Source: a bacterium (lineage in GTDB: Bacteria > Electryoneota > Electryoneia > Electryoneales > Electryoneaceae). Taken from it: a stretch of DNA of 64,000 bases. The position numbers were made by a program, and so were the translations under genes. The stretch covers positions 114,791 through 178,790 of the forward strand of contig CAXXKJ010000001.1 in the NCBI GenBank assembly GCA_963675295.2, given 5' to 3'. Below, piece by piece: positions 676 through 17,012 of this stretch. The notes beneath the pieces are model-generated. The model saw only the letters and a list, made by a program, of their open reading frames with translations. It searched no databases and was not told the origin of the DNA. Positions within the stretch are counted from its first letter, which is position 1. The number at the start of each line of letters is the position of its first letter.

Positions 676-2058
676 CTACCCGGACCGTCCATCACCAACT
701 TCCAGGTCGATCTCCAGCGCCTGCATCTTGCGGTAGAGGGTGCTCGGGTCGATGCCGAGCTGGGCGGCCGTTTTGCCGCGGTGGCCGTTGAACCGGCGTA
801 ACGCGTTCTCGATCAAAGCGCGTTCCATCTCCCGCAACGACATCCCCTCCAGCGCGGTCAGGCGATCATCCGCCTCGCCGCGAAATTCCTCCGGCAGGTG
901 CATTGGTTCGATCACCCCGCCACGGCTCAACACGAACGCCTGTTCGAGGATATTCTCCAATTCACGCACATTGCCCGGATAGTCGTAGGCGATGAGACGC
1001 GCGAGGGTCGCTTCGCTGACACCGGAACTGTCACGATTCTGCAGCCGGGCGATCCGTGCCAGCAGGTGATTGACCAGCAATGGGATGTCGCCACGGCGTT
1101 CCCGCAACGGCGGCAGCTGCAGCTGAATCACCCGCACACGATAGTACAGATCCTCACGGAACGTACCACGCTTCACGTCGCGCTTGAGGTTGTGATGCGT
1201 CGCCGCGACCACGCGCACATCCACCGGAATTGTCTCGACAGAACCCAGCGGTTCGATCACCCGTTCCTGCAGCACCCGCAGCAGCCGCACCTGCATCGCG
1301 GGCGAAATGTCACCGATTTCGTCGAGGAAAATGGTGCCGCCCTGCGCGCGCTGGAACCGGCCCGGCTTGTCCTGGTGGGCGTCGGTGAACGCCCCTTTCA
1401 CATGCCCGAACAACTCGGATTCGAGCAACGTGTCCGGCAGTGACGCACAGTTCACCGCGACAAAAGGCTTGTCTTTACGCGGGGACAGGTTGTGAATTGC
1501 ACGCGCGAACAGCTCTTTCCCGGTGCCGCTCTCGCCAACCAGCAGCACCGTGCTCGCGCTCTCCGCGATCTGCGGCAGGATGTCGAACAACTCCCGCATC
1601 GGGGCTGAGCGGCCAACGATATCCTCGAACGTGTACCGCGCTTCCAGCTCCTTGCGCAATTGTTCGACACGGCTGAGATCCTGCATCGTCTCAACCCCGC
1701 CGATCACATCACCGGCCTCGTCACGCAGCAACGCCGTCGACAGTCGCACCGGCACACGATCCCCATCGTTGTTGACAATGTGCGCGACAGCGTTCATCAC
1801 CGGCTTGCTCGATTCCAGCGTACGCCTTAACGCGCAACGGGTTTCGCAGATATCGGTGTGGAAAATTTCCCAGCACGGCTGCCCGAGTGCGTCCTCACGC
1901 GTCACCCCGGTCAACTGCTCTGCGATGCGGTTGAAGGAGGTGATGCGCCAGTCCGGATCGACAGTAAACACCCCTTCGTTGATCGAATCCAGGATCGTCT
2001 GCTCACGGTTGATCCGTTGCGCTGTCATCGTCCCGTCCTCCGGCTTGCAGTCCGCCAT
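676..2058 (-). CDS. sigma-54-dependent transcriptional activator (PAS sensor + AAA+ + Fis-type HTH)
   Basis: [15 protein letters not shown] Walker A, GAFTDA, ESELFGH, C-terminal HTH ([15 protein letters not shown]). N-terminal PAS with a C-x8-C-x3-C motif. Start moved to MADCKP (2058) so that the 25-bp palindrome at 2071-2095 is intergenic; the ORF itself extends to 2121. Confidence 0.9.
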
Positions 2059-2070
2059 AATCTGCACGAA

Positions 2071-2095
2071 TGATTCTTGCAAAATGCAAGAATCA
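2071..2095. promoter_or_regulatory. perfect 25-bp palindrome TGATTCTTGCA-AAA-TGCAAGAATCA, candidate enhancer (UAS) / autoregulatory site
   Basis: Read directly: 11-bp arms with a 3-bp spacer. It lies 13 bp upstream of the activator start and about 115-140 bp upstream of the sigma-54 promoter at 2212. Confidence 0.5.
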
Positions 2096-2211
2096 TGTTT
2101 CACGACTCGTGCAAGATACAAAAATCATCTAATCAAGTACAACATGAAGCTCTCTTCGTAATAGCATTATAAATAGGTAAATACGGAGTTGCCAGTATGT
2201 GTACCAGGAAT

Positions 2212-2226
2212 TGGCCCGCTTTCTGC
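2212..2226 (+). promoter_or_regulatory. sigma-54 (-24/-12) promoter TGGCCCG-CTTT-CTGC
   Basis: Matches TGGCACG-N4-TTGC with correct GG-N10-GC spacing. Caveat: the -12 GC is only 13 nt before the ATG at 2239, implying a leaderless or very short-leader mRNA. Confidence 0.5.
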
Positions 2227-2238
2227 CCTGCATCAGGC

Positions 2239-2619
2239 ATGAAGGTGGCAATACCGCAATGGATGGGGCGAGTCTCCCCAGTGCTGGATGTGGCGAACCG
2301 GCTCGTGATCTGTGAACGGACCGAGCGTGGCGACATCATCCGGGAAGACATCCTGCTCGCGGACAACGATCCGTACACCCGCGCCGAAACGTTGCGTGCG
2401 CTGGGGATCACGGAGGTGGTCTGCGGAACCTTGTCGCGCGGTTTGCGGCGGGCGCTGCAGGCGGCCGGGATTGACATCTACCCGCATGTGCGGGGCGACA
2501 TCGAGCAGGTGGTGGACGCCTGTCTGAACGGATCCATCGCGAGTGACGACTTCCGCATGCCCGGCTGCGGGCATGGGCGGCGGCACGGCATGCGCCACCG
2601 TCGGGGACGACACCGGTAA
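2239..2619 (+). CDS. NifB/NifX/NafY-type (dinitrogenase FeMo-cofactor-binding fold) small protein
   Basis: N-terminus MKVAIPQ...RVSPVLDVA and length are typical of the family. The ORF-track start at 2197 is rejected in favour of MKVAIP. Confidence 0.75.
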   Translation: MKVAIPQWMGRVSPVLDVANRLVICERTERGDIIREDILLADNDPYTRAETLRALGITEVVCGTLSRGLRRALQAAGIDIYPHVRGDIEQVVDACLNGSIASDDFRMPGCGHGRRHGMRHRRGRHR

Positions 2620-2648
2620 CACAACAAGAAATACGAAGGAGCAGAACG

Positions 2649-3047
2649 ATGGCAAAGGGAAACAAGAAAGGCCCGTACAATCAGGGACCGATGACCGGCC
2701 GTGGAATGGGCTACTGCGCCGGTTTCCATGAACCGGGCTACATGAACCCCGGTTTCGGCGGTGGACGCGGCCGTGGGTTTGGTGGCGGCGGAGGCATGGG
2801 CTGGCGTCACGGTCAGGGCGGCGGCGGTGGACGTGGTCGCGGCTTTGGCTGGGGCGGCGGCATGGGACGCGGATTCCATCCCGGTATGGCAGTGCCGCCG
2901 TGGGCGGAACAGGGCTATCCGGGCTACGAGGACGAGGATGAACTCGAGTTCCTCAAAACGCAGGCGAAGTCGTACGAGAGCGACCTCAAGACGATTCGCA
3001 AGCGGATGGATTCGCTCGAACGCGACATGAAGCAGGACAAGGACTAA
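2649..3047 (+). CDS. DUF5320-type Gly/Arg-rich protein with C-terminal coiled coil
   Basis: GPMTGRGMGYCAGF motif, GGGRGRGFGGGGG tracts, and a C-terminal ELEFLKTQAKSYESDLKTIRKRMDSLE helix. Confidence 0.7.
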   Translation: MAKGNKKGPYNQGPMTGRGMGYCAGFHEPGYMNPGFGGGRGRGFGGGGGMGWRHGQGGGGGRGRGFGWGGGMGRGFHPGMAVPPWAEQGYPGYEDEDELEFLKTQAKSYESDLKTIRKRMDSLERDMKQDKD

Positions 3048-3087
3048 CCGCCGGACCGGTTCACACCGTTTCAGCGGAGGAGGCACT

Positions 3088-3519
3088 ATGAGCCCGCGAG
3101 GACGAGGATTCGGCCGAGGAATGGGCGGAGGAGGCCGTGGACACGGCGGGGGACGGGCACACCGTCTCCGGGATGGATCCTGCCGGGGTGGATCTGTCCT
3201 TTCACCGGGCAACGTGGAACGGAACGCCGCCGCGATCAAGGCGGCATCCACCGTCGCGCTACCGTTGCTGAAGCTGGCCGGACAAGCCTTGCTGCAGGCG
3301 ACGCGCGGCCTGCTGGAACGTGCGCGGCAACGCCCAGAAACCGCCCGGATTGAGACGACTGTTCGTTCGGCGAACCGTGAACTCGCGACACAGCAGGAAC
3401 CGGAGCAGATCGAGGTGATCGACGTGGAAGCGTTGCCTGTGGACGAGGACAACAAAGATGGCCGCTATCTGGATACGGCACCGCGGACATCTGTACGGGA
3501 TTCCGGTGCAACGGAGTGA
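3088..3519 (+). CDS. hypothetical RG-rich protein
   Basis: Strong RBS GGAGGAGG 6 nt upstream of the ATG. N-terminus PRGRGFGRGMGGGGRGHGGG followed by a helical region. No family recognised. Confidence 0.55.
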   Translation: MSPRGRGFGRGMGGGGRGHGGGRAHRLRDGSCRGGSVLSPGNVERNAAAIKAASTVALPLLKLAGQALLQATRGLLERARQRPETARIETTVRSANRELATQQEPEQIEVIDVEALPVDEDNKDGRYLDTAPRTSVRDSGATE

Positions 3520-3521
3520 GG

Positions 3522-3884
3522 ATGACCATGCGAATTGCATTCACAACATCCGGCGATTCGTTGCAGGCAGCATTCGAACCTCATGTCGCACGGGCGAGTC
3601 ACATCCTGCTGTACGACAGATCCAGTGGGATGTTCGAGGTCCTGCCGGGTTGCCAGCCCGCAAGCCGGGACCAGCAACCCGGGGTGCAGCTCGCGCACGC
3701 TTTGCAACGGATCGGCGTCGATACACTGGTGACCGGGCATGGTGACGCTCAAGACCTCCAACAGTTGAAGTCGGAAGGCATTGACGTTTGCGAACTGGAT
3801 GCGACAACCGTCGCGGATGCGTTCAACCAGTTCAACGCCTTGCACGCGAAAGCGCAAGGAACGGCGTCAGCTCCGCAACACTAA
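3522..3884 (+). CDS. NifB/NifX/NafY-type small protein
   Basis: M(T)MRIAFTTSGDSLQAAFEPHVARASHILLYD is a typical family N-terminus. The ATG lies 3 nt after the upstream stop; 3528 is an alternative start. Confidence 0.75.
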   Translation: MTMRIAFTTSGDSLQAAFEPHVARASHILLYDRSSGMFEVLPGCQPASRDQQPGVQLAHALQRIGVDTLVTGHGDAQDLQQLKSEGIDVCELDATTVADAFNQFNALHAKAQGTASAPQH

Positions 3885-3950
3885 TGTCGAGCCGCAGCCT
3901 TGTGAATCCGACTGGACCCGGACCTGTGCCGGGGTAAACCGAGGGGCAGC

Positions 3951-4394
3951 ATGACAAAGATCGCGGTCATCATCTGTGACCGGTACCGCAACTGCGGTGG
4001 GGGAAAGTGCTTCCGGGCGCTGCGGGAGCGGAAGGGCGGTTTTACACGCTATCCGGCGGATGAGGACGTCGAGATCGTCGGGTATTCCACCTGCGGCGGT
4101 TGTCCCGGCGGCAACATCGAGTATGTCCCCGCCGAGTTCAAGAAGAACGGCGCCGAGGTGGTGCATCTGGCGACCGGATTCGTGGTGGGGTACCCTCCGT
4201 GCCCGTACCTGGCCGGGTTCAAGACCTACATCGAGACGATTCATCACCTGCCGGTTGTGGTCGGGACGCACCCGATCCCGCTGAAATACCTGCAGGCACA
4301 TGAACAGCTTCCCTTCTGGAAAGATTCCGGCATGCGAGAGCTTGCGGGCGAGCTGATGGACGAGTCGGCAGATACGATGGAAGCCTACAACTGA
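3951..4394 (+). CDS. CGGC domain-containing protein
   Basis: MTKIAVIICDRYRNCGGGKC ... STCGGCPGGNIEY, the Cys pattern of the CGGC family. Confidence 0.8.
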   Translation: MTKIAVIICDRYRNCGGGKCFRALRERKGGFTRYPADEDVEIVGYSTCGGCPGGNIEYVPAEFKKNGAEVVHLATGFVVGYPPCPYLAGFKTYIETIHHLPVVVGTHPIPLKYLQAHEQLPFWKDSGMRELAGELMDESADTMEAYN

Positions 4395-4410
4395 TACGAG
4401 GACCAGCAAC

Positions 4411-4773
4411 GTGAAAATCGCGGTTACGACATCCGGTACCGATCTGAACGCTCCATTCGAAGCACGCTTCGGTCGTGCGGCCTGCTTTCTCATCTACGAT
4501 CTCGAGCAGTCGGCGTTTGAAATCATCGACAACCAGGCGAACGCGCAAGCCGCTCGTGGCGCGGGAATCCAGGCGGCGCAGTCGGTGTGCCAGCGTGGCG
4601 CTCAGGTGTTGTTGACCGGCCATTGCGGGCCGAAGGCGTGGGATGTACTTCAGGCGGCTGGGGTTGAGGTGTTCAACATCGAGGCGACCACGGTGGCGAA
4701 CGCGTTGGAACAGTACAACAACGGATCGCTTACGCCAGCCGGGGGCGCCAATGTCCAAGGACACTGGTCATGA
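4411..4773 (+). CDS. NifB/NifX/NafY-type small protein
   Basis: GTG start preceded by GAGGA. (M)KIAVTTSGTDLNAPFEARFGRAACFLIYDL. Confidence 0.8.
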   Translation: MKIAVTTSGTDLNAPFEARFGRAACFLIYDLEQSAFEIIDNQANAQAARGAGIQAAQSVCQRGAQVLLTGHCGPKAWDVLQAAGVEVFNIEATTVANALEQYNNGSLTPAGGANVQGHWS

Positions 4774-5297
4774 GCCAATCCCTCACCCTGCACCCGATCG
4801 GCGTCATCCGAAGCGTACACACCGAGCCGGAGAAGACACCGATCCAGCCGATGTTCGCGCAGGATTGCATCGGAACCGTCGTTGTGGACGAGAAATACCT
4901 CGACGCACTCGCCGATATCGACCGCTTCTCGCATCTTTACCTGATTTACTGGCTGCACAAGGCCGGACCGGTGAAGTTGAAGCTGAAGCCGTTCCTGAGT
5001 GACGACATTCGCGGGTTGTTCGCGACACGAGCACCGAGCCGCCCCAACCCGATCGGGATGAGCATCGTCGAGCTGATCAGCCGGGACGAAAACATCCTCG
5101 ATGTGCGCGGCGTGGACATCCTCGATGGGACCCCGTTGCTGGATATCAAGCCATACACCGAACGGTTTGACAATGTGCAGACCCGCCGCAACGGCTGGCA
5201 GGACAGGTTGGACGACGAAACCGCGGAACGGTTGGGAAGACGCAACTACCAGCCCGCTCCACCTGTACCCGAACATGAAAATAGACGGAAGGATTGA
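4770..5297 (+). CDS. TsaA/TrmO (YaeB, UPF0066) family SAM-dependent methyltransferase-fold protein
   Basis: HPIGVIRS..., RAPSRPNPIGMSIV, LDGTPLLDIKPY. ATGA start/stop overlap with the upstream gene. Confidence 0.85.
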   Translation: MSQSLTLHPIGVIRSVHTEPEKTPIQPMFAQDCIGTVVVDEKYLDALADIDRFSHLYLIYWLHKAGPVKLKLKPFLSDDIRGLFATRAPSRPNPIGMSIVELISRDENILDVRGVDILDGTPLLDIKPYTERFDNVQTRRNGWQDRLDDETAERLGRRNYQPAPPVPEHENRRKD

Positions 5298-5303
5298 CCC
5301 ACG

Positions 5304-6176
5304 ATGAAACTCGTGATCGCCAGCGGGAAAGGCGGCGCCGGTAAGACGATGGTCGCGACCAACCTGGCTTGGACTGCCGCGCAACAAGGCATCGACACGG
5401 CCTTTCTCGACTGCGATGTGGAAGAACCGAACGCCGCGCTGTTTCTCAAGCCGGAGATCGATAACGTTTTGCCGGTGCACGTACCGACGCCGGTGATCAA
5501 CCAGGACGCGTGTACGCACTGCGGGCTGTGTTCCGATATCTGCCGCTACAACGCGCTCGCCGTGCTCAGCGACAAGGTGCTGTTGTTCAACGAATTGTGC
5601 CACTCCTGCGGCGGATGCGTGCATGTCTGCCCGGAGCACGCGATCCACGAGGAACCGCGCCTTGTCGGACACATCGACGTTGGCCAGTCCGGCACGCTGA
5701 AGGTCCGTTCCGGTGTGCTCAAGGTGGGGGAGGCAATCGCTCCGCCGGTGGTGAAGGCGGTGAAACAGCAGGCTGGCGACGAAACCCTGACCATCCTCGA
5801 CTCCCCGCCCGGAACCGCCTGCCCGGCGGTGGAAACGGTGCGTGATGCCGACTTCGTGCTCTTCGTCGGCGAAGCGACACCGTTTGGACGGCACGATCTC
5901 GCGCTCGCGATCGACCTCGCGGAAGCGCTGAAACGACCGTTCGCCGTGATGCTGAACCGTGCCGATCTCGACCATGGCGAGACGAAACGCTGGTGCGAGG
6001 AGAAGGGATACAGCGTCCTTGCGGAAATCAACGAGGACCGGCGGATCGCTGAAACCTGCTCAAGCGGCGCGCTGGTCGTGGACACACTTCCCGACTACCA
6101 GGAGGTGTTCAGCAAACTGCTGGTGGATGTGAATGCGGCGGCGGGGATCACCACAAACGAACAGGTGCGCGGATGA
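5304..6176 (+). CDS. MinD/ParA/Mrp-type P-loop ATPase with inserted 2x[4Fe-4S] ferredoxin domain
   Basis: Deviant Walker A SGKGGAGKT. CTHCGLCSDIC and CHSCGGCVHVCP ferredoxin motifs. Confidence 0.85.
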   Translation: MKLVIASGKGGAGKTMVATNLAWTAAQQGIDTAFLDCDVEEPNAALFLKPEIDNVLPVHVPTPVINQDACTHCGLCSDICRYNALAVLSDKVLLFNELCHSCGGCVHVCPEHAIHEEPRLVGHIDVGQSGTLKVRSGVLKVGEAIAPPVVKAVKQQAGDETLTILDSPPGTACPAVETVRDADFVLFVGEATPFGRHDLALAIDLAEALKRPFAVMLNRADLDHGETKRWCEEKGYSVLAEINEDRRIAETCSSGALVVDTLPDYQEVFSKLLVDVNAAAGITTNEQVRG

Positions 6177-7072
6177 AACCGACGGAACTGGTTGTGATCA
6201 GCGGCAAGGGCGGAACCGGCAAAACGTCGCTGGTGGCGGCGTTCGCCACGCTGGCTGCTGAATGTGTCCTGGCGGATTGTGATGTGGACGCGTCCAACCT
6301 GCACCTGATCCACCACTCGGAGCTGGTGCTGCGCGAACCGTTCTCCGGACGCGTGCGTGCATCGATTGATCCGGATCGCTGCACCGACTGTGGCATCTGC
6401 GAAACCCTGTGCCGCTTCGACGCGATCCAGCCATCGGGTGGAAACGGATTCACGCCGGTTTTCCACCCGACGATCAACCCGCATCTGTGCGAGGGGTGCG
6501 GCGTGTGCGCGTGGTTCTGCCCGGAAAAGGCGATTGACCTCTACGACGGCGAGGACGGGCACGTGCTGCTGTCCAAAACCCGTTGCGGGCCGATGGCGCA
6601 CGCCCGGCTCGGCGTCGCCGGCGAAAATTCCGGTAAGCTGGTTGGCCTGGTCCGTGAACAGGCACGCGAGCTGGCCGTCATGCGCGAGCTGGACACCATC
6701 CTGATTGACGGGTCTCCCGGGATCGGCTGCCCGGTGATCGCGTCCCTGACCGGCGCGGACATGGCGCTGATCGTGACCGAGCCGAGCGTCAGCGGCGTGC
6801 ACGACATGAAGCGCATCGCCGAACTGGCCGCGGGTTTCGGCATTCCGACGCTGGTCGCCGTCAACCGCTGGGATGTCAACCCGCAGTTGACTGATGAGAT
6901 TGAATCGCTGGCGGTCAAACATGGCCTTGAGTTCGCGGGACGGGTTCGCTACGACACCGCGTTCAGCCGGGCGCAGCTCGAGGGCAAATCGGTGCTGGAT
7001 ATCGAAAGCAACGACCTCGCGGATGATATCAAGCAGGTGTGGTCGGTCGTGGAGGCGCGGCTCCACAATTGA
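6173..7072 (+). CDS. MinD/ParA/Mrp-type P-loop ATPase with inserted 2x[4Fe-4S] ferredoxin domain (paralog)
   Basis: SGKGGTGKT; CTDCGICETLC and CEGCGVCAWFCP. ATGA overlap with the upstream gene. Confidence 0.85.
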   Translation: MKPTELVVISGKGGTGKTSLVAAFATLAAECVLADCDVDASNLHLIHHSELVLREPFSGRVRASIDPDRCTDCGICETLCRFDAIQPSGGNGFTPVFHPTINPHLCEGCGVCAWFCPEKAIDLYDGEDGHVLLSKTRCGPMAHARLGVAGENSGKLVGLVREQARELAVMRELDTILIDGSPGIGCPVIASLTGADMALIVTEPSVSGVHDMKRIAELAAGFGIPTLVAVNRWDVNPQLTDEIESLAVKHGLEFAGRVRYDTAFSRAQLEGKSVLDIESNDLADDIKQVWSVVEARLHN

Positions 7073-7088
7073 CGGAGGAGCTTCAGCC

Positions 7089-8009
7089 ATGAAACATGTT
7101 TATGGGCCTGTGCCCTCTAGGCGGTTGGGCAGGTCACTGGGTATCGACCTGGTCCCATACAAAACATGCAGTTTCGACTGCATTTACTGCCAGTTGAAAC
7201 GTACGACTCTGCTGACGACTGAGCGCCGCGAATGGTATCCGCTGGACGACGTAGTGGAGGACGTTAAAAGCAGCCTGTCGCAAGAGTTCGATTACATCAC
7301 TCTGAGCGGGTCCGGCGATCCCACGCTCTACAGTCGGCTGGGAGAATTGATCGACCGGATTCATTCACTGACGGATCGTCCTGTCGCAGTGCTGACCAAC
7401 GGATCGCTGCTCTGGCGGGAGGATGTGCGGCAGGAGCTGAAGGAGGCTGACCTGTTGATCCCTTCGCTGGACGCCGGGGATGAAGAAACCTTCCAGTTGG
7501 TCAACCGGCCCACTGATGAGTTGAACCTGGGCTTGATCGTCGAGGGTTTGATCCAGACCCGGGAACAGTTCCGCGGCGAGCTGTGGCTCGAGATCATGTT
7601 GGTGAATGAATGGAACACGTCCGATGAGCAGGTCCAACGGATTGCCGACCAGATTCGTTGGATTCGACCGAACCACGTGCAGCTGAACACCGTGATCCGG
7701 CCTGCAACCGAAACGTATGCCGTGGCGGTCCCTCCCGGCCGTCTGGGGAAAATTGCGACTCACTTCTCAAACGCGGACGTGATCGCCGGGTTCTCCTCAG
7801 AAGAGCTGCAAGACGCAAAACTAATGTCCGGAACGGGTGAAGAATCGGTGATGGAAATGCTGATCCGGCGTCCGTGCACGTTGCAGGATTTGTCGGATGG
7901 ACTGCAATGCCACCCCAACGAGGCAGTCAAAGCACTGGACCGCTTGCAGGAAATGGGAAAGATCCGCACACGTGATGTGGATGACAAGATGTATTACCTG
8001 GCGTGCTGA
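7089..8009 (+). CDS. radical SAM protein
   Basis: MKHVYGPVPSRRLGRSLGIDL...CSFDCIYC (Cx3Cx2C). Start set at MKHVYG; the ORF-track start at 6894 overlaps the upstream gene. Confidence 0.85.
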   Translation: MKHVYGPVPSRRLGRSLGIDLVPYKTCSFDCIYCQLKRTTLLTTERREWYPLDDVVEDVKSSLSQEFDYITLSGSGDPTLYSRLGELIDRIHSLTDRPVAVLTNGSLLWREDVRQELKEADLLIPSLDAGDEETFQLVNRPTDELNLGLIVEGLIQTREQFRGELWLEIMLVNEWNTSDEQVQRIADQIRWIRPNHVQLNTVIRPATETYAVAVPPGRLGKIATHFSNADVIAGFSSEELQDAKLMSGTGEESVMEMLIRRPCTLQDLSDGLQCHPNEAVKALDRLQEMGKIRTRDVDDKMYYLAC

Positions 8010-8120
8010 ACCATTAAACAGTGTTGGGTTCGCATAGCCCGGATCAAGTTGAACAAGAACGAACCTGAGGTCACCCCTGACCCTCTCCAATGACACCTTG
8101 ATGCCCACTATAAGACCAAA

Positions 8121-8159
8121 CCGCCCGTGGCATGGACCTTCCCAGTCTGCCACGGGCGG
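8121..8159. terminator. 12-bp-stem hairpin between convergent genes (bidirectional terminator candidate)
   Basis: CCGCCCGTGGCA-N15-TGCCACGGGCGG followed by AATGATTTTG. Confidence 0.5.
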
Positions 8160-8188
8160 AATGATTTTGTCAGAATGGTTGGTTCGAA

Positions 8189-8539
8189 TCAGTCGAGGCC
8201 TTCCTTCTCAAACTGCTTCACAGCCTCATAGGCTTCGATGCCGTAAATCACGGACGGTCCGCCACCCATCAGAATCGCCACGCCGATCGTCTCAAGGATT
8301 TCCTCCCTGGATGCGCCGGCCTTGAGCGAATCGTGCACATGGAACGAGATACACCCGTTACAGCGAACGGTGATGGCGATGCTGAGCGCGATCAACTCCT
8401 TGGTTTTCTTGTCAAGCGCGCCTTTGCCGCCAGCCGCCTGATGAAGCTGGCCGAAGCCTTCCATTACGCCGGGCAGATCCTGATGCAGCCGCTTCATCAT
8501 CCCGACGGTGTGCTTGTAGGTCTCCGGATAGTTGTGCAT
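8189..8539 (-). CDS. carboxymuconolactone decarboxylase / AhpD-like family protein
   Basis: LDKKTKELIALSIAITVRCNGCISFHV (CxxC AhpD-like motif). 116 aa. Confidence 0.85.
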   Translation of the reverse strand: MHNYPETYKHTVGMMKRLHQDLPGVMEGFGQLHQAAGGKGALDKKTKELIALSIAITVRCNGCISFHVHDSLKAGASREEILETIGVAILMGGGPSVIYGIEAYEAVKQFEKEGLD

Positions 8540-8607
8540 CGTCTCCTCCTTTTACCAGTCAGGTAGCCATGCAAGAGTTTCAGCGAAATTCGTCCTGTTG
8601 AATCCAT

Positions 8608-10587: not shown

Positions 10588-11363
10588 TGTTCGCCACCCC
10601 CGTGCCCGTTGGTTGACGCGTCCGGTCCATGCATCTGCTGCATCCGCCGCCGCACGATCCAGTTCACTCCGGCCACGCTGGCGAGCACGCTACCGCCGAC
10701 AATCGGCGTCGCGTGCATCACCGGTTCGACCAGGTGCGGAATCGACCCGGTATCCGGGGAGGGCCAGCCCAGTTCGGCGAGGTCGGTGTTCGCGATGTAG
10801 AGCACGCCCGTACCGCCGAATTCATGCTCGCCCCAGACGTGGTCGATGTACCCGTTCGGATTCTCACCGATCCGCTGGTGCGCGAGACGCAGCAACTTCT
10901 CTCGCTCGCCAAACTCGATCGCGTTCTGCGGGCAGGCCTCCGCGCAGGCCGGGATTTCGCCCTCCGCGAGACGTTCCTCGCACAACTCGCATTTCTTCAT
11001 GAACGGCACCGTCGCCGACCACTCGTAGCGCGGTACGTGAAACGGGCACGCCAGCATGCAGTAACGGCAGCCGATGCACTTGTCAGGATCGTAGACCACC
11101 GCACCATTTTCGCTGCGGGTGATGCCGCCAACCAGGCACGCGCTGACGCAACTCGGCTCGAGGCAGTGCATGCACGCCTTCTTCGCGAACTGGTCCCAGC
11201 CAACCGGCTGCACCGTCGTCAACCGGTCCGCTGAAAGCCCGTCCGGGGTGGTCGCACGGTCACGGTCGGCGGCTGCCGGGTCGCAGCCGTTGGCCTTCAC
11301 GCAGGCCGCGACACATTTCTCGCAGCCGACGCATTTCGTCACATCAATCAGCATCCCGATCAT
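10584..11363 (-). CDS. 4x[4Fe-4S] ferredoxin-type subunit (HmcB/DsrO/NrfC-like) with C-terminal TM helix
   Basis: CVGCEKCVAAC, CMHCLEPSCVSAC, CIGCRYCMLACP, CELCEE...CAEACP. No N-terminal Tat or Sec signal is visible. Hydrophobic C-terminal segment IVGGSVLASVAGVNWIV. Confidence 0.85.
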   Translation of the reverse strand: MIGMLIDVTKCVGCEKCVAACVKANGCDPAAADRDRATTPDGLSADRLTTVQPVGWDQFAKKACMHCLEPSCVSACLVGGITRSENGAVVYDPDKCIGCRYCMLACPFHVPRYEWSATVPFMKKCELCEERLAEGEIPACAEACPQNAIEFGEREKLLRLAHQRIGENPNGYIDHVWGEHEFGGTGVLYIANTDLAELGWPSPDTGSIPHLVEPVMHATPIVGGSVLASVAGVNWIVRRRMQQMHGPDASTNGHGGGEQ

Positions 11364-12064
11364 ACCTTCGCCTCCTTGCCGAGCACCGTCTCCGCGACAC
11401 GATCGCCCGCGCCCGGACGCAACTGCCAGTGAATCTCCGAGATGCGGTCAAAGAAGATCAGCACGATGTGGCTCAGCTTGGTGAACGGCACCAGGATCAA
11501 CAACGCTTCCGCGCTGAGCAGGTGGATGAGGAACATCGTCTGCCACGGCAATGGATTAAACGCCGGATGCGCCGCGAGGAAGCCGCTGATGAACGGCAGC
11601 AGGATCAACACCAGCAGGCTGACGTCCGAATTGCGGCTGATCGCACGCAGGCGTGGCACCGCGATCCGGCTGACCAACAGCACCAGCACCGCAAGGATCG
11701 TGATCACGGTGAGCACATCCGCAAATCCGTTCCCGATCGACCACAGGTTGATCCCGAGCCACTGTTCCCAGAGCACGATGTGGCCGGCGTAAAACAGCGG
11801 CACGAGGATCGCACCGATGTGGAACACGAATGATGCGTTGGAGAAAGTCACGTTGCCCGATGTCAGGTGACGGACCGGCAGCGCCCACTCCAGCGAGTCG
11901 TGCAGCATCTTGTTCCACGGCATGTATTTGAGCCGGCTGCGTTTGCGCCGGAACAACGTGTCCAGTTGCAGCACCAGGTGCCGCAGCAGCCCGAGTGCCA
12001 TCACGCCCAGCGACAAGGCGAACAACGGCCCCATCGCGAAATCGATCCAGGCTTGCATTCCCAT
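11360..12064 (-). CDS. NarI/DsrM/HmcE-like membrane cytochrome b subunit
   Basis: About 5 TM helices with conserved His residues, layout of the nitrate reductase gamma family. Overlaps neighbours by 4 nt. Confidence 0.75.
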   Translation of the reverse strand: MGMQAWIDFAMGPLFALSLGVMALGLLRHLVLQLDTLFRRKRSRLKYMPWNKMLHDSLEWALPVRHLTSGNVTFSNASFVFHIGAILVPLFYAGHIVLWEQWLGINLWSIGNGFADVLTVITILAVLVLLVSRIAVPRLRAISRNSDVSLLVLILLPFISGFLAAHPAFNPLPWQTMFLIHLLSAEALLILVPFTKLSHIVLIFFDRISEIHWQLRPGAGDRVAETVLGKEAKV

Positions 12065-12071
12065 CCTCCAC

Positions 12072-13514
12072 TCACATGGCGTACAGTTCCGCCTCTTCCT
12101 TGCGTTCCTCCGCCGACTTGCCGCCGGGGATCTCGATCGCCTTCAGGATCAGGTCGTGCAGGCCCATCACCTCGCACGGGATCTCGTAAAACTCGACCAG
12201 TTCCTTGAGCTGCTTCTTGCAATTGGCGCAAGGGGCGATGCAGATCTGCGCGCCGGTCGCGACGATCTGGTCGGCCTTTGTCTTGCCGCCGACCTTCATC
12301 CGGAAGTCGTGGATCTCGTCAATCGACACCAGCCCGCCACCACCGCCACAGCAGTAATTGTTGCGGCCTCCCGGTGTCATCTCGACATAGTCCTTGACGA
12401 ACGACTTGAGGATTTCGCGGGGCTGGTTCACAATCCAGCCGCCACGCGCCATGTTGCACGGGTCGTGGTAGGTCACTTTCTCGGTGATGATGTCCGGGTT
12501 CAGCTTGATCTTGCCCCGGCGCAAACAATCCAGCGTGTATTCGATGAAGCTGACTACCGGACGGGTCTGTGCACCGCCGAAGACTGGCACGAAATCATGC
12601 GCCGACCGCGAGGCGTGCCCGCATTCGCCGATCAGGATGTTCTTCCCGTTCAATCGGTCGACTTCACCGACGAGCTGCTTGATGATCCGTTCGAGATGCC
12701 AGTCGCTGTAGAACAGGCCGTAGTTGATGCCGTCGAAATTGCCGGTGCCGATGGTCCAGCGATCCCAGTCGCCGGCGGCGTGCAACACCGCGAGGTTGCC
12801 GAGCAACGTGTCCGGCTCCATCAGGTAGTCGCTGACCGCGCAGAAGAAGACGTAATCCCGGTTCTTCTTGTCCACCGGCACGTCCAGATCGATGCCGAAC
12901 TGGTCGGAGAATTCCTCTTGCAGGAATTCGAGCGTGTGCAGCATCGCCGTCGCCGGAACCTTGGACGTGTTGTGCGTTTCACCTTCCAATTGTTCCCGCA
13001 CACTTACTTGCAGCGCCTTCGGTGCAATCCCCGTGAGGCTCAGGATATAGCGTCCGAGACGAGTGATCAGGCCGTGATCCATCCCCATTGGACATTCGAG
13101 TGTGCAACGGCGGCAGGCGGTGCAACGGTAGAACACCTCCGCCATCTCCGCGATGACCTCTTCCGTCAGCTCGAACCGGTTCGGCGTGAACCGTGCATTG
13201 AGCCATCCGCCGAGCGTGAAGTACCGCTGGTAAATCGAAAGCAGCAGCGTCGTCTTGTAGCACGGCACATCGCGCGGGTCGCCGGTCACCTGGTACACCG
13301 GACAAGTCACCGAACAGCGGTTGCACTTGTTCGTCGTGCGGCAGTACGAATCGAGCAGCGGCTTGTAGTCCGTGTGCTCGAGCACCGCCGCGAACGCATC
13401 GAGGAAACGTTCCACCCTTCCCCCCGAACCGTTGCCCTCGATGTGGTACGGCAGGCGGGCTTTCAGGTCGATCTCGGCTGACGTAGCCAGGCCGCCGTTC
13501 GTTGTTTCAGCCAT
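12072..13514 (-). CDS. HdrD/DsrK/HmcF-like (Fe-S)-binding CCG-domain oxidoreductase
   Basis: CNRCSVTCP, CTACRRCTLECP, NYCCGGGGG, CANCKKQ. Start set at MAETT (13514), preceded by GGAG; the ORF extends to 13526. Confidence 0.85.
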   Translation of the reverse strand: MAETTNGGLATSAEIDLKARLPYHIEGNGSGGRVERFLDAFAAVLEHTDYKPLLDSYCRTTNKCNRCSVTCPVYQVTGDPRDVPCYKTTLLLSIYQRYFTLGGWLNARFTPNRFELTEEVIAEMAEVFYRCTACRRCTLECPMGMDHGLITRLGRYILSLTGIAPKALQVSVREQLEGETHNTSKVPATAMLHTLEFLQEEFSDQFGIDLDVPVDKKNRDYVFFCAVSDYLMEPDTLLGNLAVLHAAGDWDRWTIGTGNFDGINYGLFYSDWHLERIIKQLVGEVDRLNGKNILIGECGHASRSAHDFVPVFGGAQTRPVVSFIEYTLDCLRRGKIKLNPDIITEKVTYHDPCNMARGGWIVNQPREILKSFVKDYVEMTPGGRNNYCCGGGGGLVSIDEIHDFRMKVGGKTKADQIVATGAQICIAPCANCKKQLKELVEFYEIPCEVMGLHDLILKAIEIPGGKSAEERKEEAELYAM

Positions 13515-13556
13515 GCAGAACTCCATTGGGTTGCAGTGTTGTCGCTGCCGGTGTCA

Positions 13557-13571
13557 GCAAAGGGCGGGCCG
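13557..13571 (-). promoter_or_regulatory. sigma-54 promoter candidate (minus strand CGGCCCG-CCCT-TTGC)
   Basis: Reverse complement of 13557-13571 fits GG-N10-GC with a TTGC -12 element, about 30-45 nt upstream of the HdrD-like start. Confidence 0.45.
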
Positions 13572-13721
13572 AACAAGAAGAGGCGGGCAAATCCGGCTGG
13601 AAAACGAGGCCGCTGTAACTCGTGTCACCGCTGCGAATTCACCAGCGGGGAGAGGCCGAGGTACCTGCGCCGCACGTGGTACGATTTCGCATTCCTGATT
13701 TTCCGTTTTTGCGCGAAAAGT

Positions 13722-13786
13722 GTTGCAGGCGTTGCAGCGAAACGTTGTGTTGCAACGACTCCTGCTACAGCTGCGACACTTGCAAC
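13722..13786. promoter_or_regulatory. cluster of four (G/C)TTGCA(G/A) boxes including the palindrome GTTGCAAC; candidate shared enhancer site
   Basis: GTTGCAG at 13722 and 13731, GTTGCAAC at 13749, CTTGCAAC at 13779. Located midway between the two divergent sigma-54 promoters. Confidence 0.3.
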
Positions 13787-13930
13787 TCACGACCCGGGCA
13801 CCTGACCGGAGACCGTCTTACACACGACGGAAGATTCACGTAACTCCCGTGCCTCAACCGCTCCGCGTGATTTCGTCCTGCTCATTCCGTCATCAAGGGG
13901 GGTACCGTTACGCGACGCTGATCCCTATCC

Positions 13931-13944
13931 GGCACAACGCTTGC
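13931..13944 (+). promoter_or_regulatory. sigma-54 (-24/-12) promoter GGCAC-AACGC-TTGC
   Basis: Near-consensus match. GGAGG RBS at 13964-13968 and ATG at 13975. Confidence 0.6.
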
Positions 13945-13974
13945 CGTTTGCTGCGATGAAACCGGAGGCGATCC

Positions 13975-15027
13975 ATGCGTATTTGTGTACCCCTGTTTGG
14001 CGATCGAGTGGCACCGCGTTGCACACACGCGGATAGCGTGCTGCTCTGTACGCTGAAACGCGGACGCATCGTTGAACAGGAACGGATCCGGCGCAGCATC
14101 GACAGCCTGCTCGACCTCGAGGATGTTCTCCGCAACCGCAAGGTCGACACGCTGGTCTGTGGCGGCATCAACCAGCATGACCGCTCCACCGTCGATCCAC
14201 TGCTGGAAGCGGTGGTGTCGAACGTCGCGGGCACGGTTGAGGACGTATTGCTCGGGGTGTCGTCCGGTCGGATCGGTCTGGACGAGGCGAACGGTGCAAC
14301 GCCGGAGACAGCAACGGTTGCAACACCGGCGAAACCGCAGCCCAAGCCCGCAGCTGGGAATCCGTCGATGACCGACTGCCTCACCTGCGACACCATGACG
14401 TGCCTCGAGGGCAAGGGATGTGTGCTGCAGGCGTCCGGCATTCTGCTCGGTGACCGCGACGACCGCATCATGCTCGAGGTCGCGCGCGATTTGAACTGCG
14501 AGGACGAACGACGCCTCTGCAGGCTGTCCGAGCTGATCTACTTCGGCCTCGAGATGGGCTACCGCACCGTCGGCATCGCCTACTGTAGCGATTTGTACCA
14601 GCCGGCGCGGGTGCTGGCGGGCGTGTTCAAGCGTTTCTTCGAGGTGCATGCCGTCTGTTGCAAGCTGCACGTCCCGAGCAACGGCCACACGTTCAACGCC
14701 GACATGCCGGACCCGTCCACCCGCTGCAACCCTCTCGCACAGGCTGAATTGCTGAACAAACTGGGCACCGACATGAATGTGATCGTCGGACTCTGCGTTG
14801 GCGCGGACTGCGTCTTCACCCACGCCAGCGACGCTCCGGTGACCACCCTGTTCGCCAAGGATCGCGCGCTCGCGAACAACCCCATCGGCGCGGTCTATTC
14901 GGAACGATATCTGCGCGAAGCGGCACAAACCCTGGCCGCCCCAAAAACCGATATCCGCAACCACCAGATAAGCGTCGAGCGTGAATCCATGGAACACGCC
15001 GGCGACACAGGAAGGGCAGACTCATGA
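13975..15027 (+). CDS. fusion protein: N-terminal NifX-like domain + Pro/Ala linker + C-terminal DUF1847 (Cys-rich metal-binding) domain
   Basis: MRICVPLFGDRVAPRCTHA... (NifX-like). C-terminal CNPLAQAELLNKLGTDMNVIVGLCVGADCVFTHASDAPVTTLFAKDRALANNP is the DUF1847 signature as I recall it. Confidence 0.75.
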   Translation: MRICVPLFGDRVAPRCTHADSVLLCTLKRGRIVEQERIRRSIDSLLDLEDVLRNRKVDTLVCGGINQHDRSTVDPLLEAVVSNVAGTVEDVLLGVSSGRIGLDEANGATPETATVATPAKPQPKPAAGNPSMTDCLTCDTMTCLEGKGCVLQASGILLGDRDDRIMLEVARDLNCEDERRLCRLSELIYFGLEMGYRTVGIAYCSDLYQPARVLAGVFKRFFEVHAVCCKLHVPSNGHTFNADMPDPSTRCNPLAQAELLNKLGTDMNVIVGLCVGADCVFTHASDAPVTTLFAKDRALANNPIGAVYSERYLREAAQTLAAPKTDIRNHQISVERESMEHAGDTGRADS

Positions 15028-15581
15028 CGATGGTGTCGATGAAGTCCATCGGGCTATGCGCCAACTATTCGGAAGCGGGAGACTGGGCGTTCGACTTCGC
15101 CCTCGGGCTCGCACGCAAGCACAACCTGCAGCTGAACATCTTCCACTTTCTCGCGGACCCGTTCGACCCCTCCGCCGATTCCCCGATGGCGATGCCGAAG
15201 GATCAACGGGACGCGATGTCGATCGAGATGGAACGCAATCTGCGCTTCTACTACGACGAACGTCTCGGCGATCACCTTAAGGCCGGATTCCGCGTCTGCG
15301 AAAGCAATGAGTGGACCGAGCTGCATCACTGCCTGATGCGCCGTGAATTTGAGCTGCTGGTGCTGCCGTACCCAAAGCGGAACGCCACCTTCGGCGGCAA
15401 GCCAATTGAAGATTTCGCGAAGAATTTCGTGTCGCCGGTGGCACTGGTCGGACCGGACACTCCCGACCAGATCCGGCTGAACAACCAGGCCGGCCTGGCG
15501 AACAAAATCGCCGATTTCGTCGGCGCGCAAGAGATCCTGGCGACGGCGCTTGCGCTGATCATGATGGCAGGCAGCATTTGA
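15024..15581 (+). CDS. universal stress protein (UspA)-like protein
   Basis: ATGA overlap with the upstream gene. USP-like alpha/beta layout (LQLNIFHF..., ELLVLPY...). Weak assignment. Confidence 0.6.
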   Translation: MTMVSMKSIGLCANYSEAGDWAFDFALGLARKHNLQLNIFHFLADPFDPSADSPMAMPKDQRDAMSIEMERNLRFYYDERLGDHLKAGFRVCESNEWTELHHCLMRREFELLVLPYPKRNATFGGKPIEDFAKNFVSPVALVGPDTPDQIRLNNQAGLANKIADFVGAQEILATALALIMMAGSI

Positions 15582-15704
15582 CCTGGATTTCAGATTACAA
15601 GGGGAGATCGGTGCCTTTTCCGGCAATTTCATTCGTACATTTAGGATACACTATCTCCTCCTGATCTTTTGTGACGGAAGTGCCCCCCGAAACACGATGG
15701 CGAG

Positions 15705-17012
15705 ATGGACGAAAGCCTCAGCAAAATCATTTTCGAAAGCATCCGTGACGGCGTGTTCACGGTCAACAAGCACTGCATCATCACCTCGTTCAACAAGGCT
15801 GCCGAAAGCATCACCGGCTTCAGCAGCGACGAGGCGATTGGCCGTCATTGTTTCGACGTTTTCCGCACCGAAGTGTGCCACAAGCGCTGCGCGCTGAAGG
15901 ACACACTGAAGAGCCAGGAAGCGGTCGAAAATGTGCGCGTCACGATCATCACCAAGGACGGCTGCGAGGTTCCGATCACCGTCTCGACCACCCTGCTGCG
16001 CGACCGCAAAGAAAACGTGATCGGTGCGGTGGAGTTCTTCCAGGACCTGTCCACGATCGAAAACCTGCGCAATCGCGTCCATCATGCCACCACGCTGGAC
16101 AATATCGTCAGTGTCAACGCACGCATGCAGGAATTGATCCACCTGCTGCCGGACGTTGCCACCGCCGAATGCAACGTGCTGATCGAAGGCCCGAGCGGGT
16201 CCGGCAAGGAGCTGTTCGCGCAGGCGATCCATTCGCTCAGCCCACGTAAGTACGGATCGTACATCCGCATCAACTGCGGTGCGCTGCCTGCAACGTTGCT
16301 CGAATCCGAACTGTTCGGCTACGAAAAAGGCGCGTTCACCGACGCCAAGCGCGACAAGCCGGGCATGTTCTGCCTCGCCAACGGCGGCACGCTGCTGCTC
16401 GATGAAATCGGTGAAATGGACGTGCAGCTGCAATCCAAGCTGCTGCGCGTGCTGAACAACGGCGAGTATCGTCCGCTCGGTTCCACCCGCACCATGCGCA
16501 CCGACGCCCGCATCATCGCCTCAACCAACATCGACCTGCAGGCAGCCATCGAACGGCGTGAGTTCCGCCAGGATCTCTACTTCCGTCTGAATGTCGTCAA
16601 CATCCACATTCCGCCGCTGTCCGACCGTCCCGAGGACATTCCGCTGCTGGTCGACTACTTCATCCGCAAGGTGAAGAAAAAGATCCGCAAGCCGATCGAA
16701 TCGGTGTCGCCCGACGTTTTGGCGCAACTGCGGCGCTACGACTTCCCCGGTAACGTTCGCGAACTGGAAAACGCGATCGAACACGCGTTCGTGATGTGCC
16801 ACGGCAGCGTGATCCAACCGAACCATCTGCCCGGCCACATCATGAATAACGTCAACGCCGACATCACCCGCCATCCGCACCCGAGGCACGAGAAGGACGA
16901 GATCGTCGAAGCGCTCAGCCGTCACCACGGCAACCGTACCCAGGCCGCACGCGACCTCGGCATGCACCGTACCACGCTGTGGCGCAAGCTCGTCGCCTAC
17001 CACCTCGACTGA
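15705..17012 (+). CDS. sigma-54-dependent transcriptional activator (PAS sensor + AAA+ + Fis-type HTH), paralog of 676-2058
   Basis: GPSGSGKELFAQAIH, GAFTDA, ESELFGY, C-terminal AARDLGMHRTTLWRKL. The PAS domain has the same C-x8-C-x3-C motif. Confidence 0.9.
   Translation: MDESLSKIIFESIRDGVFTVNKHCIITSFNKAAESITGFSSDEAIGRHCFDVFRTEVCHKRCALKDTLKSQEAVENVRVTIITKDGCEVPITVSTTLLRDRKENVIGAVEFFQDLSTIENLRNRVHHATTLDNIVSVNARMQELIHLLPDVATAECNVLIEGPSGSGKELFAQAIHSLSPRKYGSYIRINCGALPATLLESELFGYEKGAFTDAKRDKPGMFCLANGGTLLLDEIGEMDVQLQSKLLRVLNNGEYRPLGSTRTMRTDARIIASTNIDLQAAIERREFRQDLYFRLNVVNIHIPPLSDRPEDIPLLVDYFIRKVKKKIRKPIESVSPDVLAQLRRYDFPGNVRELENAIEHAFVMCHGSVIQPNHLPGHIMNNVNADITRHPHPRHEKDEIVEALSRHHGNRTQAARDLGMHRTTLWRKLVAYHLD

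Follow-up and report, generated by a model that had tools for sequence, protein, structure and literature searches.

The stretch of DNA considered here (the window) covers 64,000 nucleotides of the genome of an uncultured bacterium of the phylum Electryoneota (assembly GCA_963675295.2, contig CAXXKJ010000001.1, positions 114,791 to 178,790). Between its positions 676 and 17012 lies an island of genes for metal clusters and electron transfer, bordered by an alpha/beta hydrolase gene on the left and, on the right, by what the first-pass annotation, made from the letters of the window, called a glycan-use locus. In this 16-kb stretch, a copy of a known, functionally unsolved operon, that of the "orange protein" (ORP), is joined to an as yet undescribed module for membrane electron transfer. 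The left unit is a fresh member of the orp/OrpR system already described in Desulfovibrio vulgaris. For the right unit, and for its predicted control by a paralogue of the regulator OrpR, no earlier description was found in the literature.

The genes are given below. The content listed in the first-pass annotation (cluster carriers, Fe-S ATPases, a radical SAM enzyme, DUF1847, a USP-like protein, an AhpD-like protein and an Hmc-like complex) was borne out by the listing of open reading frames and by Pfam scans, in which three proteins belong to the NifX-like family Nitro_FeMo-Co.

676..2058, minus strand: activator 1, an OrpR-type sigma-54 enhancer-binding protein (PAS domain with C-x8-C-x3-C, AAA+ domain with GAFTDA, HTH_8)
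2239..8009, plus strand: ORP-like operon of 11 genes, with small gaps or none (Pfam); its genes follow
2239-2619, plus strand: NifX-like protein (Nitro_FeMo-Co 25.2 bits, just under the cut-off of 26.3)
2649-3047, plus strand: DUF5320 protein (Pfam)
3088-3519, plus strand: Arg/Gly-rich (RG-rich) protein without a Pfam family
3516-3884, plus strand: NifX-like protein (Nitro_FeMo-Co)
3951-4394, plus strand: CGGC protein (Pfam)
4411-4773, plus strand: ORP homologue (Nitro_FeMo-Co; match to D. gigas ORP, PDB 2WFB, E 1.6e-23, full length)
4770-5297, plus strand: TsaA/TrmO-like protein (TrmO_N; TIGR00104 125 bits, above the cut-off of 93)
5304-6176, plus strand: first MinD-type 2x[4Fe-4S] ATPase (CbiA/ParA P-loop and two Fer4 motifs)
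6173-7072, plus strand: second MinD-type 2x[4Fe-4S] ATPase (CbiA/ParA P-loop and two Fer4 motifs)
7089-8009, plus strand: radical SAM protein (best NCBIfam matches TYW1, MoaA and viperin, about 40 bits, far below their cut-offs)
8121..8159, no strand: G+C-rich hairpin CCGCCCGTGGCA...TGCCACGGGCGG followed by a T run (sequence and terminator scan)
8189..8539, minus strand: AhpD/CMD-family CxxC protein (Pfam CMD; AhpD core domain 52 bits, above the cut-off of 27.8)
8608..13526, minus strand: operon of the Hmc-like membrane complex (Pfam, NCBIfam); its four genes follow
12072-13526, minus strand: DsrK/HmcF-like CCG (HdrD-like) protein (bits/cut-off: DsrK 275/400, HmcF 220/750, TmcB 200/735)
11360-12064, minus strand: TmcC/HmcE-like membrane protein, NarI-like (Nitrate_red_gam-like; TmcC 147/240, HmcE 128/275)
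10584-11363, minus strand: HmcB-like protein with four Fe-S clusters (Fer4_11; HmcB 224/420)
8608-10587, minus strand: NrfD/HmcC-like membrane protein fused to a C-terminal hexahaem cytochrome c (HmcC 225/550)
13975..15027, plus strand: NifX-like domain (residues 1-100), Cys-rich linker C-x2-C-x4-C-x5-C and DUF1847 (Pfam DUF1847)
15024..15581, plus strand: USP-like protein of 185 residues (weak Pfam Usp match, E 0.0056, below the cut-off)
15705..17012, plus strand: activator 2, an OrpR-type sigma-54 enhancer-binding protein (C-x8-C-x3-C, Asp at the second position after the first Cys, GAFTDA)

Comparisons with relatives draw on a sample of 79 genomes of the host phylum, of which the present one (G000) measures 4.8 Mb and is 92.8% complete. 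Intact right units were gathered from 18 loci, that is, 12 phylum genomes, this one included, and six metagenome or metagenome-assembled-genome contigs; the copy on a seventh contig, L026, is frameshifted and stands outside the 18. Genes in the relatives were located by tblastn with the island proteins and through contig gene tables.

Judged by its proteins, the left half is a single-operon form of the ORP system, which belongs to strict anaerobes. Besides the ORP homologue it encodes two MinD-type ATPases that are 31% identical to each other, and Orp3 and Orp4 have been described as paralogous MinD-type ATPases with two [4Fe-4S] motifs (PMC6345978). The operon ends with the radical SAM gene, which converges with the AhpD-like gene, and the hairpin between the two is likely a terminator acting in both directions. 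For the AhpD-like gene, 68 nt 3' of the gene for the NrfD::cytochrome fusion, the gap scan returned no promoter of its own. These last two genes had been counted among the parts of the island, but they are absent, together with the hairpin, from the otherwise collinear island of a genome of the same genus (G001). The stretch that they occupy (7089-8539) is also lower in GC, at 0.57 against 0.60-0.64. Elsewhere the radical SAM gene lies between the two MinD genes (G009, G049, G036) or directly after the NrfD::cytochrome gene (G052, L025), and the AhpD-like gene follows the activator in G009 and L036.

The Pfam name suggests another role: could this be an accessory locus for nitrogen fixation, or for the biosynthesis of a nitrogenase-type cofactor (FeMo-co)? 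Four proteins with the NifX/NifB-C fold, ATPases of the MinD/NifH class and a radical SAM enzyme would all suit such a role, but among solved structures the carrier is best matched by ORP and not by NifX, and the radical SAM protein lies far below every NCBIfam model that it matched. We regard this reading as very improbable, and it was rejected because no match to Oxidored_nitro (PF00148; NifD/K/E/N) was found in the 92.8%-complete genome.

The make-up of the right unit is fixed: in all 18 loci its seven genes have the same order and orientation. The NrfD::cytochrome fusion, 659 residues long, contains about ten hydrophobic segments; its six CxxCH motifs fall at residues 504-629, and the HmcA model gives the protein 28 bits against a cut-off of 400. 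The words "fused", "fusion" and "HmcC" do not occur in a review of the NrfD proteins (PMC8076601). The HmcB-like subunit begins at its first cluster motif (MIGMLIDVTKCVGCEKC) and has a C-terminal hydrophobic segment followed by RRR.

In the divergent arm, the N-terminus of the NifX-DUF1847 protein is 28% identical to a NifX-like protein, and its residues 1-100 are modelled by AlphaFold with a predicted local distance difference test score of 89-98. Foldseek matches this part to PH0822, TM1816, MJ0327 and ORP, with template-modelling (TM) scores of 0.66-0.80. The protein has cysteines that are invariant across 48 homologues; at E <= 1e-10 it has 668 homologues, and some of the fusion homologues are labelled Zixibacteria or Longimicrobiales. 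The fold search with the DUF1847 domain gave weak Rossmann-like matches only (transcarbamylases, Dph2; TM score about 0.2, E > 1e-3); this cysteine-rich domain has no solved relative, and no paper on it was found in the literature searched. In the related loci, the gene for the USP-like protein always comes directly after that for NifX-DUF1847.

Activators, promoters and candidate binding sites

Both activators have PAS, Sigma54_activat, AAA_lid_14 and HTH_8 domains (Pfam) in a single-component architecture, and their alignment shows 45% identity over 432 residues (E 6e-134). The claim that two paralogous PAS-AAA+ activators stand at the two edges is thereby confirmed, and the two are of one sensor type. 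The PAS core of each holds C-x8-C-x3-C (one of the two stretches reads CFDVFRTEVCHKRC), in which the second residue after the first cysteine is Glu or Asp, and each has KGAFTDA, a variant of the GAFTGA loop. The reading frame of activator 1 is open as far as TTG 2121; its likely start is ATG 2058.

These features are those of OrpR (DVU2106) of D. vulgaris Hildenborough, in which the PAS domain has C52, C61 and C65 plus D/E54 and binds a [4Fe-4S]2+ cluster that turns into [3Fe-4S]1+ on mild oxidation; with its three cysteines changed, OrpR is blind to the redox potential (PMC8359166). A paper on the sigma-54 regulome gives DVU2106 with GAFTDA (PMC4641369). At the level of sequence, then, both activators carry the published OrpR signature. 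The PAS domain of each most likely holds a redox-sensitive [4Fe-4S] cluster, and the signature suggests that the island responds to redox conditions. The cysteine triad is kept in all nine orthologues of activator 2 and in all three of activator 1. Activator 1 forms a clade with its orthologues in G001 and G011 (support 100/100), while the orthologues of activator 2 form another (100/100) that covers nine genomes and always stands beside the Hmc-like unit.

How special is this pair? The genome encodes 21 sigma-54 activators, six of which have the C-x8-C-x3-C PAS domain, so the pair are paralogues, as had been claimed, but make up two of six, and the closest paralogue of activator 2 lies outside the island (C2:4132247-4133701, 51% identity). 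Three PAS activators adjoin further NifX-like genes, and two of these three have the cysteine pattern. The OrpR-type sensor is therefore not a one-off regulator of orp genes: of the family of six, at least two are predicted to control Hmc-like complexes, a third lies near a gene for an HdrD-like::receiver fusion, and another adjoins a multihaem cytochrome gene. This suggests a general switch, working at low redox potential, for parts of the electron-transport chain in uncultured bacteria that carry dsr genes.

The activator near the HdrD-like::receiver fusion is a longer one, of about 600 residues with an extra N-terminal region (locus L003, G000:C2:2564001-2582000, positions 6639-12366), and a PAS histidine kinase, a receiver protein and a MerR regulator are found there as well. 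In G035, its orthologue stands beside an HdrD-like gene and ORP genes (L016).

Both control regions contain predicted promoters and candidate sites:

2070..2096, no strand: perfect 27-bp palindrome ATGATTCTTGCA-AAA-TGCAAGAATCAT, candidate site of activator 1
2106-2119, no strand: additional half-site CTCGTGCAAGATAC, conserved
2166..2195, minus strand: sigma-70-like promoter CTGGCA-18-TATAAT towards activator 1, upstream of the palindrome
2212..2227, plus strand: sigma-54 promoter of the ORP-like operon, TGGCCC-GCTTT-CTGC (TGGCCCGCTTTCTGCC), 12 nt before ATG 2239
13556..13571, minus strand: sigma-54 promoter of the Hmc-like operon, CGGCCC-GCCCT-TTGC (CGGCCCGCCCTTTGCT), 29 nt before the start of the reading frame
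13720..13790, no strand: cluster of TGTYGCA / TGCRACA / GTTGCAAC boxes between the divergent promoters, candidate sites of activator 2
13930..13945, plus strand: sigma-54 promoter of the NifX-DUF1847 operon, CGGCAC-AACGC-TTGC (CGGCACAACGCTTGCC), 29 nt before ATG 13975

The genome has rpoN, and the island has three sigma-54-type sites (2212, 13556 and 13930), one per multi-gene unit; the scan of the internal gaps between island genes found none. Taken alone, the pattern TGGC-N8-TGC occurs 15 times in the window where 11.5 would be expected, which is no enrichment. Since such counts are uninformative, the promoter claim rests on position and on conservation in the 18 related loci. The promoter on the HmcF side appears as YGGYAY-N5-TTTGC in 18 of the 18, and that on the DUF1847 side (CGGCAC-N5-TTGC, with a strict GG-N10-GC) in 16, the other two being one-base variants. 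On the left, the palindrome, the half-site and the sigma-54 promoter are all kept in G001, of the same genus, and in G011, of another. The -24/-12 promoters proposed in the first-pass annotation are thus conserved for all three operons.

The left promoter is the same distance from the start codon in G001 and G011 (13 nt in G011). Because the -12 element ends 12 nt before ATG 2239, the first gene of the ORP-like operon would have a very short leader or none. Another ATG in the same frame, at 2197 and preceded at 8 nt by GGAG, sits upstream of this promoter. The left palindrome occurs once in the 4.8-Mb genome and is kept as TTCnTGCA-AAA-(T/A)GCAnGAA in G001 and G011. Its core, GCA-AAA-TGC, is that of the D. 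vulgaris OrpR site GGGCGYRTTTTGCGCCC (PMC8359166). Set against the 17-bp type GGGCGCA-AAA-YRCGCCC, the palindrome, TTCTTGCA-AAA-TGCAAGAA, has the same core and spacing and different outer bases. The only sigma-70-type match between 600 and 17400 is aimed at activator 1; it may parallel the promoter of orpR in D. vulgaris, which is sigma-70-driven and autorepressed (PMC3897727).

The right intergenic region is built otherwise. Pairs such as TGTCGCA-N4-5-TGCAACA and TGTCGCA-N-TGCGACA lie in its middle in 10 of the 10 loci read by eye, and every one of the 18 loci has two to seven TGTYGCA/TGCRACA boxes. Promoters and boxes persist although the GC of these regions ranges from 21 to 67%. With spacers of 1 or 5 nt, the architecture is unlike the GGGCGCA-AAA-YRCGCCC type.

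As half-site and spacing differ between the left palindrome and the right boxes, two regulons are indicated, each with its own activator; the pairing of activator 1 with the palindrome and of activator 2 with the boxes is a prediction. What the first-pass annotation had proposed, namely one module under one signal, therefore holds in part. The paralogous sensors, the promoters and an association between the units stand, whereas the single control and the single module do not, given the different sites upstream and a palindrome that is unique in the genome. The island is, in our judgement, probably made up of two adjacent sigma-54 regulons, each with its own OrpR-type activator, that are separately controlled, answer the same kind of signal and are functionally associated.

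No boxes of the activator 2 type were found before the ORP genes that follow activator 2 in G008, L034 and L035. On two of these loci, the Orp-type core genes placed there keep a sigma-54 promoter of their own and a palindrome of their own: GGGTGCA-ACG-TGCACCC in L034 (13050-13280) and AAGTCGCGA-TT-CGCGACTT in L035 (13020-13300). The stretch of L034 that was viewed has no orthologue of activator 1.

Occurrence of the two units in related genomes

If the two units belong together in function, they should be found together. The right unit was scored by its NifX-DUF1847 fusion, the ORP core by the first MinD-Fer4 ATPase. Among the 79 genomes, the right unit is present in 16 and the ORP core in 29, with both in 15. 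The ORP core thus accompanies 15 of the 16 right units and is found in 14 of the 63 genomes that lack one (Fisher p 2e-7); counted by genus, the figures are 13 of 14 and 12 of 41 (p 7e-5). As relatives are not independent, both of these p values overstate the association. It is real and asymmetric: the right unit nearly always comes with the ORP core, and the converse is often false.

The units lie within 11 kb of each other in six of nine resolvable genomes (G000, G001, G008, G009, G011, G049) and are clearly unlinked in G012, G052 and G029; six genomes were left unresolved by short contigs. There are at least three layouts of the ORP genes relative to the right unit. They lie at the cytochrome end in G000, G001, G011 and G049, after the activator in G008, G009, L034 and L035, and on the same strand as the complex operon in L025. 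Orp-type core genes adjoin the right unit on three of the seven further contigs, as a MinD-type ORP core on L025 and L035 and, on L034, as a smaller group made up of DUF5320, an Mrp-like ATPase and a NifX-like gene. Beside the right unit of L036 there are only the CGGC, radical SAM and AhpD-like genes.

One way to read these data is that the whole 16 kb is one dedicated module under one signal, in which the ORP-like operon would be the assembly line for the clusters of this very complex. The 15 of 16 right units found with an ORP core speak for it, as do the several layouts in which the units are adjacent. In G008, L034 and L035, moreover, Orp-type core genes come directly after activator 2 with no orthologue of activator 1 between, and the radical SAM, CGGC and AhpD-like genes shift between the units from genome to genome. 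However, 14 of the 79 genomes have the ORP core and lack the right unit, as Desulfovibrio does by published accounts, so the core is not dedicated to this complex. The control regions differ in their sites, the left palindrome being unique in the genome; the core genes of L034 and L035 retain their own promoter and palindrome; and in G012 and G052 the units are clearly not linked. A single dedicated module, which fails on these separate sites and stand-alone ORP operons, is unlikely.

At the opposite end, the two units might be neighbours and nothing else, sharing a sensor type that arose from a duplicated gene, with an adjacency owed to descent or to a clustering of low-potential genes and with no interaction. 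In keeping with this, the six OrpR-type activators stand beside varied genes (NifX-like, HdrD::REC, multihaem cytochrome, histidine kinases), activator paralogues that are not orthologues of activator 1 stand beside the right unit in G006, G009 and G012, and the right unit is alone on L024, L026 and L037. But adjacency outlives rearrangement, since ORP genes are met at the cytochrome end, after the activator and, on L025, on the same strand; it also outlives a drift in GC of the intergenic region from 32 to 59%. The paralogous complex described below adjoins ORP genes too, in G005 and G011, and the nesting of 15 in 16 at genome level is hard to explain by descent alone. We find pure neighbourhood improbable because the adjacency survives rearrangement and because of this nesting. 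Were it correct, the island would be another example of a known operon next to one more uncharacterised Hmc-type complex.

Two associated regulons remain the reading that we prefer, and several points weigh against it. The right unit is without nearby ORP core genes in G012, G052, L024, L026 and L037; the check on co-occurrence and linkage proposed in the first-pass annotation came out mostly favourable. G006, a genome 96% complete, has the right unit, and no ORP core was found in it. The link to Orp and OrpR of D. vulgaris draws on the published signature, the match to the ORP structure and the domain architecture. MrpORP (Orp9) is not in the island, where the best NCBIfam score is 43 bits against a cut-off of 450; genome-wide the best is 282 bits, under the cut-off, over model positions 3-252 and with no NifX-like part. 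For every subunit of the complex, the scores stay below the curated cut-offs of the Hmc, Tmc and Dsr models. In composition the complex is therefore Hmc-like, but it is no orthologue of Hmc, Tmc or Dsr. Lastly, the HmcB-like subunit (10584-11363) has no recognisable Tat or Sec signal, which makes the side of the membrane on which it lies unsure.

Elsewhere in the genome, the module recurs as a paralogous copy on one strand (G000:C2:4126223-4133701; locus L001, 6145-13683). Its Cys-PAS activator is the one 51% identical to activator 2, and a 269-residue NifX-like protein accompanies it; the complex proteins are 53% (HmcF-like), 36% (HmcE-like), 48% (HmcB-like) and 36% (NrfD::cytochrome) identical to those of the island. 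Next come a PAS histidine kinase and two receiver proteins. Most of the sampled phylum genomes have a module of this type. In G011, the paralogous complex, an ORP operon with its activator and the right unit stand side by side within 20 kb (L010, G011:C11:655001-675000), the ORP genes lying between the two complexes.

Proposed working of the two regulons and known relatives

How might the two regulons work? Activator 1 would bind the palindrome at 2070-2096 and, at low redox potential, open the sigma-54 promoter at 2212. The left unit would then provide metal-sulfide carriers of the NifX fold, the ORP homologue among them, with the two MinD-type ATPases and the DUF5320, RG-rich, CGGC, TsaA-like and radical SAM proteins. 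Activator 2, in turn, would bind the TGTYGCA boxes at about 13720-13790 and fire both of the divergent sigma-54 promoters. The product of one arm is predicted to be a transmembrane electron-transfer complex of the Hmc/Dsr type, in which a periplasmic hexahaem domain would be carried on a quinone-type NrfD subunit, together with an Fe-S subunit, a membrane subunit from the family of the b-type cytochromes TmcC and HmcE and a cytoplasmic DsrK/HdrD-like subunit. The NifX-DUF1847 and USP-like proteins of the other arm are the likeliest candidates for cytoplasmic partners of this complex. The ORP system would be the more general partner. Its probable task is to supply or handle low-potential electrons or metal-sulfur clusters for complexes of the HdrD type.

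Does the ORP system then deliver clusters to the complex? Does it deliver electrons, in whichever direction these may flow? Or do the two units share only their timing? The link could take any of these forms. It is possible, and we put it forward tentatively, that the right unit is a complex of respiration or redox homeostasis, not described before, and depends on the ORP system. The ORP proteins would then deliver or repair a metal-sulfur cofactor for membrane complexes of the DsrK/HdrD type and for their NifX-DUF1847 partner, or feed them low-potential electrons at the cost of ATP.

To our knowledge, more than a decade of work in Desulfovibrio has not settled the function of the ORP complex and its Mo-Cu or Fe-S carriers; the cellular role of the complex has been open since the description of 2011, and the proposed link to cell division is putative. 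In the right module, which is almost never without the ORP core and is often beside it, the ORP system may have a testable client or partner. If the association proves true, the ORP complex would gain its first concrete client, and the OrpR-type activators would make up a family of switches for low potential, every one with a gene of the NifX fold as its partner.

The closest known system is the orp cluster with OrpR of D. vulgaris Hildenborough, DVU2103-DVU2109, reportedly the work of Fievet in 2011, 2014 and 2021 and of Pardoux in 2019. Here as there, a sigma-54 activator has C-x8-C-x3-C plus D/E in its PAS domain and GAFTDA, a palindrome with the core GCA-AAA-TGC precedes a -24/-12 promoter, and a sigma-70-like promoter faces the regulator gene; both have the ORP (Orp8) homologue, two MinD-type ATPases like Orp3 and Orp4, and an anaerobic host with dsr genes. 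The left half is this already described orp/OrpR system, which the first-pass annotation had not recognised. There are differences too. Two divergent three-gene operons there are replaced here by one 11-gene operon, which diverges from activator 1; the alpha/beta hydrolase gene stands on the other side of the activator. The fusion of Mrp/NBP35 to NifX (Orp9, MrpORP), a defining member in D. vulgaris, is missing, whereas the CGGC, TsaA-like, DUF5320, RG-rich and radical SAM genes are extra. A second OrpR paralogue with a different site is predicted to control a membrane complex, and the host belongs to an uncultured lineage and not to the Desulfobacterota.

The small carriers, three in number, and residues 1-100 of NifX-DUF1847 have the fold of the family of NifX, NafY and the NifB C-terminus, to which D. 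gigas ORP (2WFB) belongs. No nitrogenase was found in this genome (92.8% complete), and one copy of the fold is fused to DUF1847.

With Hmc (HmcABCDEF), Tmc (TmcABCD) and DsrMKJOP, the complex shares a CCG protein, a TmcC/HmcE-type subunit, a four-cluster Fe-S protein, an NrfD subunit and a multihaem cytochrome c. Its cytochrome, however, has six haems and is fused to NrfD, whereas HmcA (16 haems) and DsrJ (three haems) are separate proteins. The gene order is F-E-B-C::A, the Fe-S subunit is without a signal peptide, and the operon always comes with sigma-54 control and with the divergent operon of NifX-DUF1847, the USP-like protein and an OrpR-type activator. From DsrMKJOP it differs further in that the DsrK model scores 275 bits against a cut-off of 400, in that it has no gene for a trihaem DsrJ-like protein, and in that dsrAB and dsrC are located elsewhere. 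The dsrA and dsrB genes (adjacent NIR_SIR genes) and dsrC were found at C2:1134184-1138634, with a DsrK-like gene at C2:1142830; the organism therefore has a Dsr-type sulfur metabolism. A Fer4_11 gene also lies in that region (G000:C2:1134184-1145316), a few kb beyond dsrAB-dsrC.

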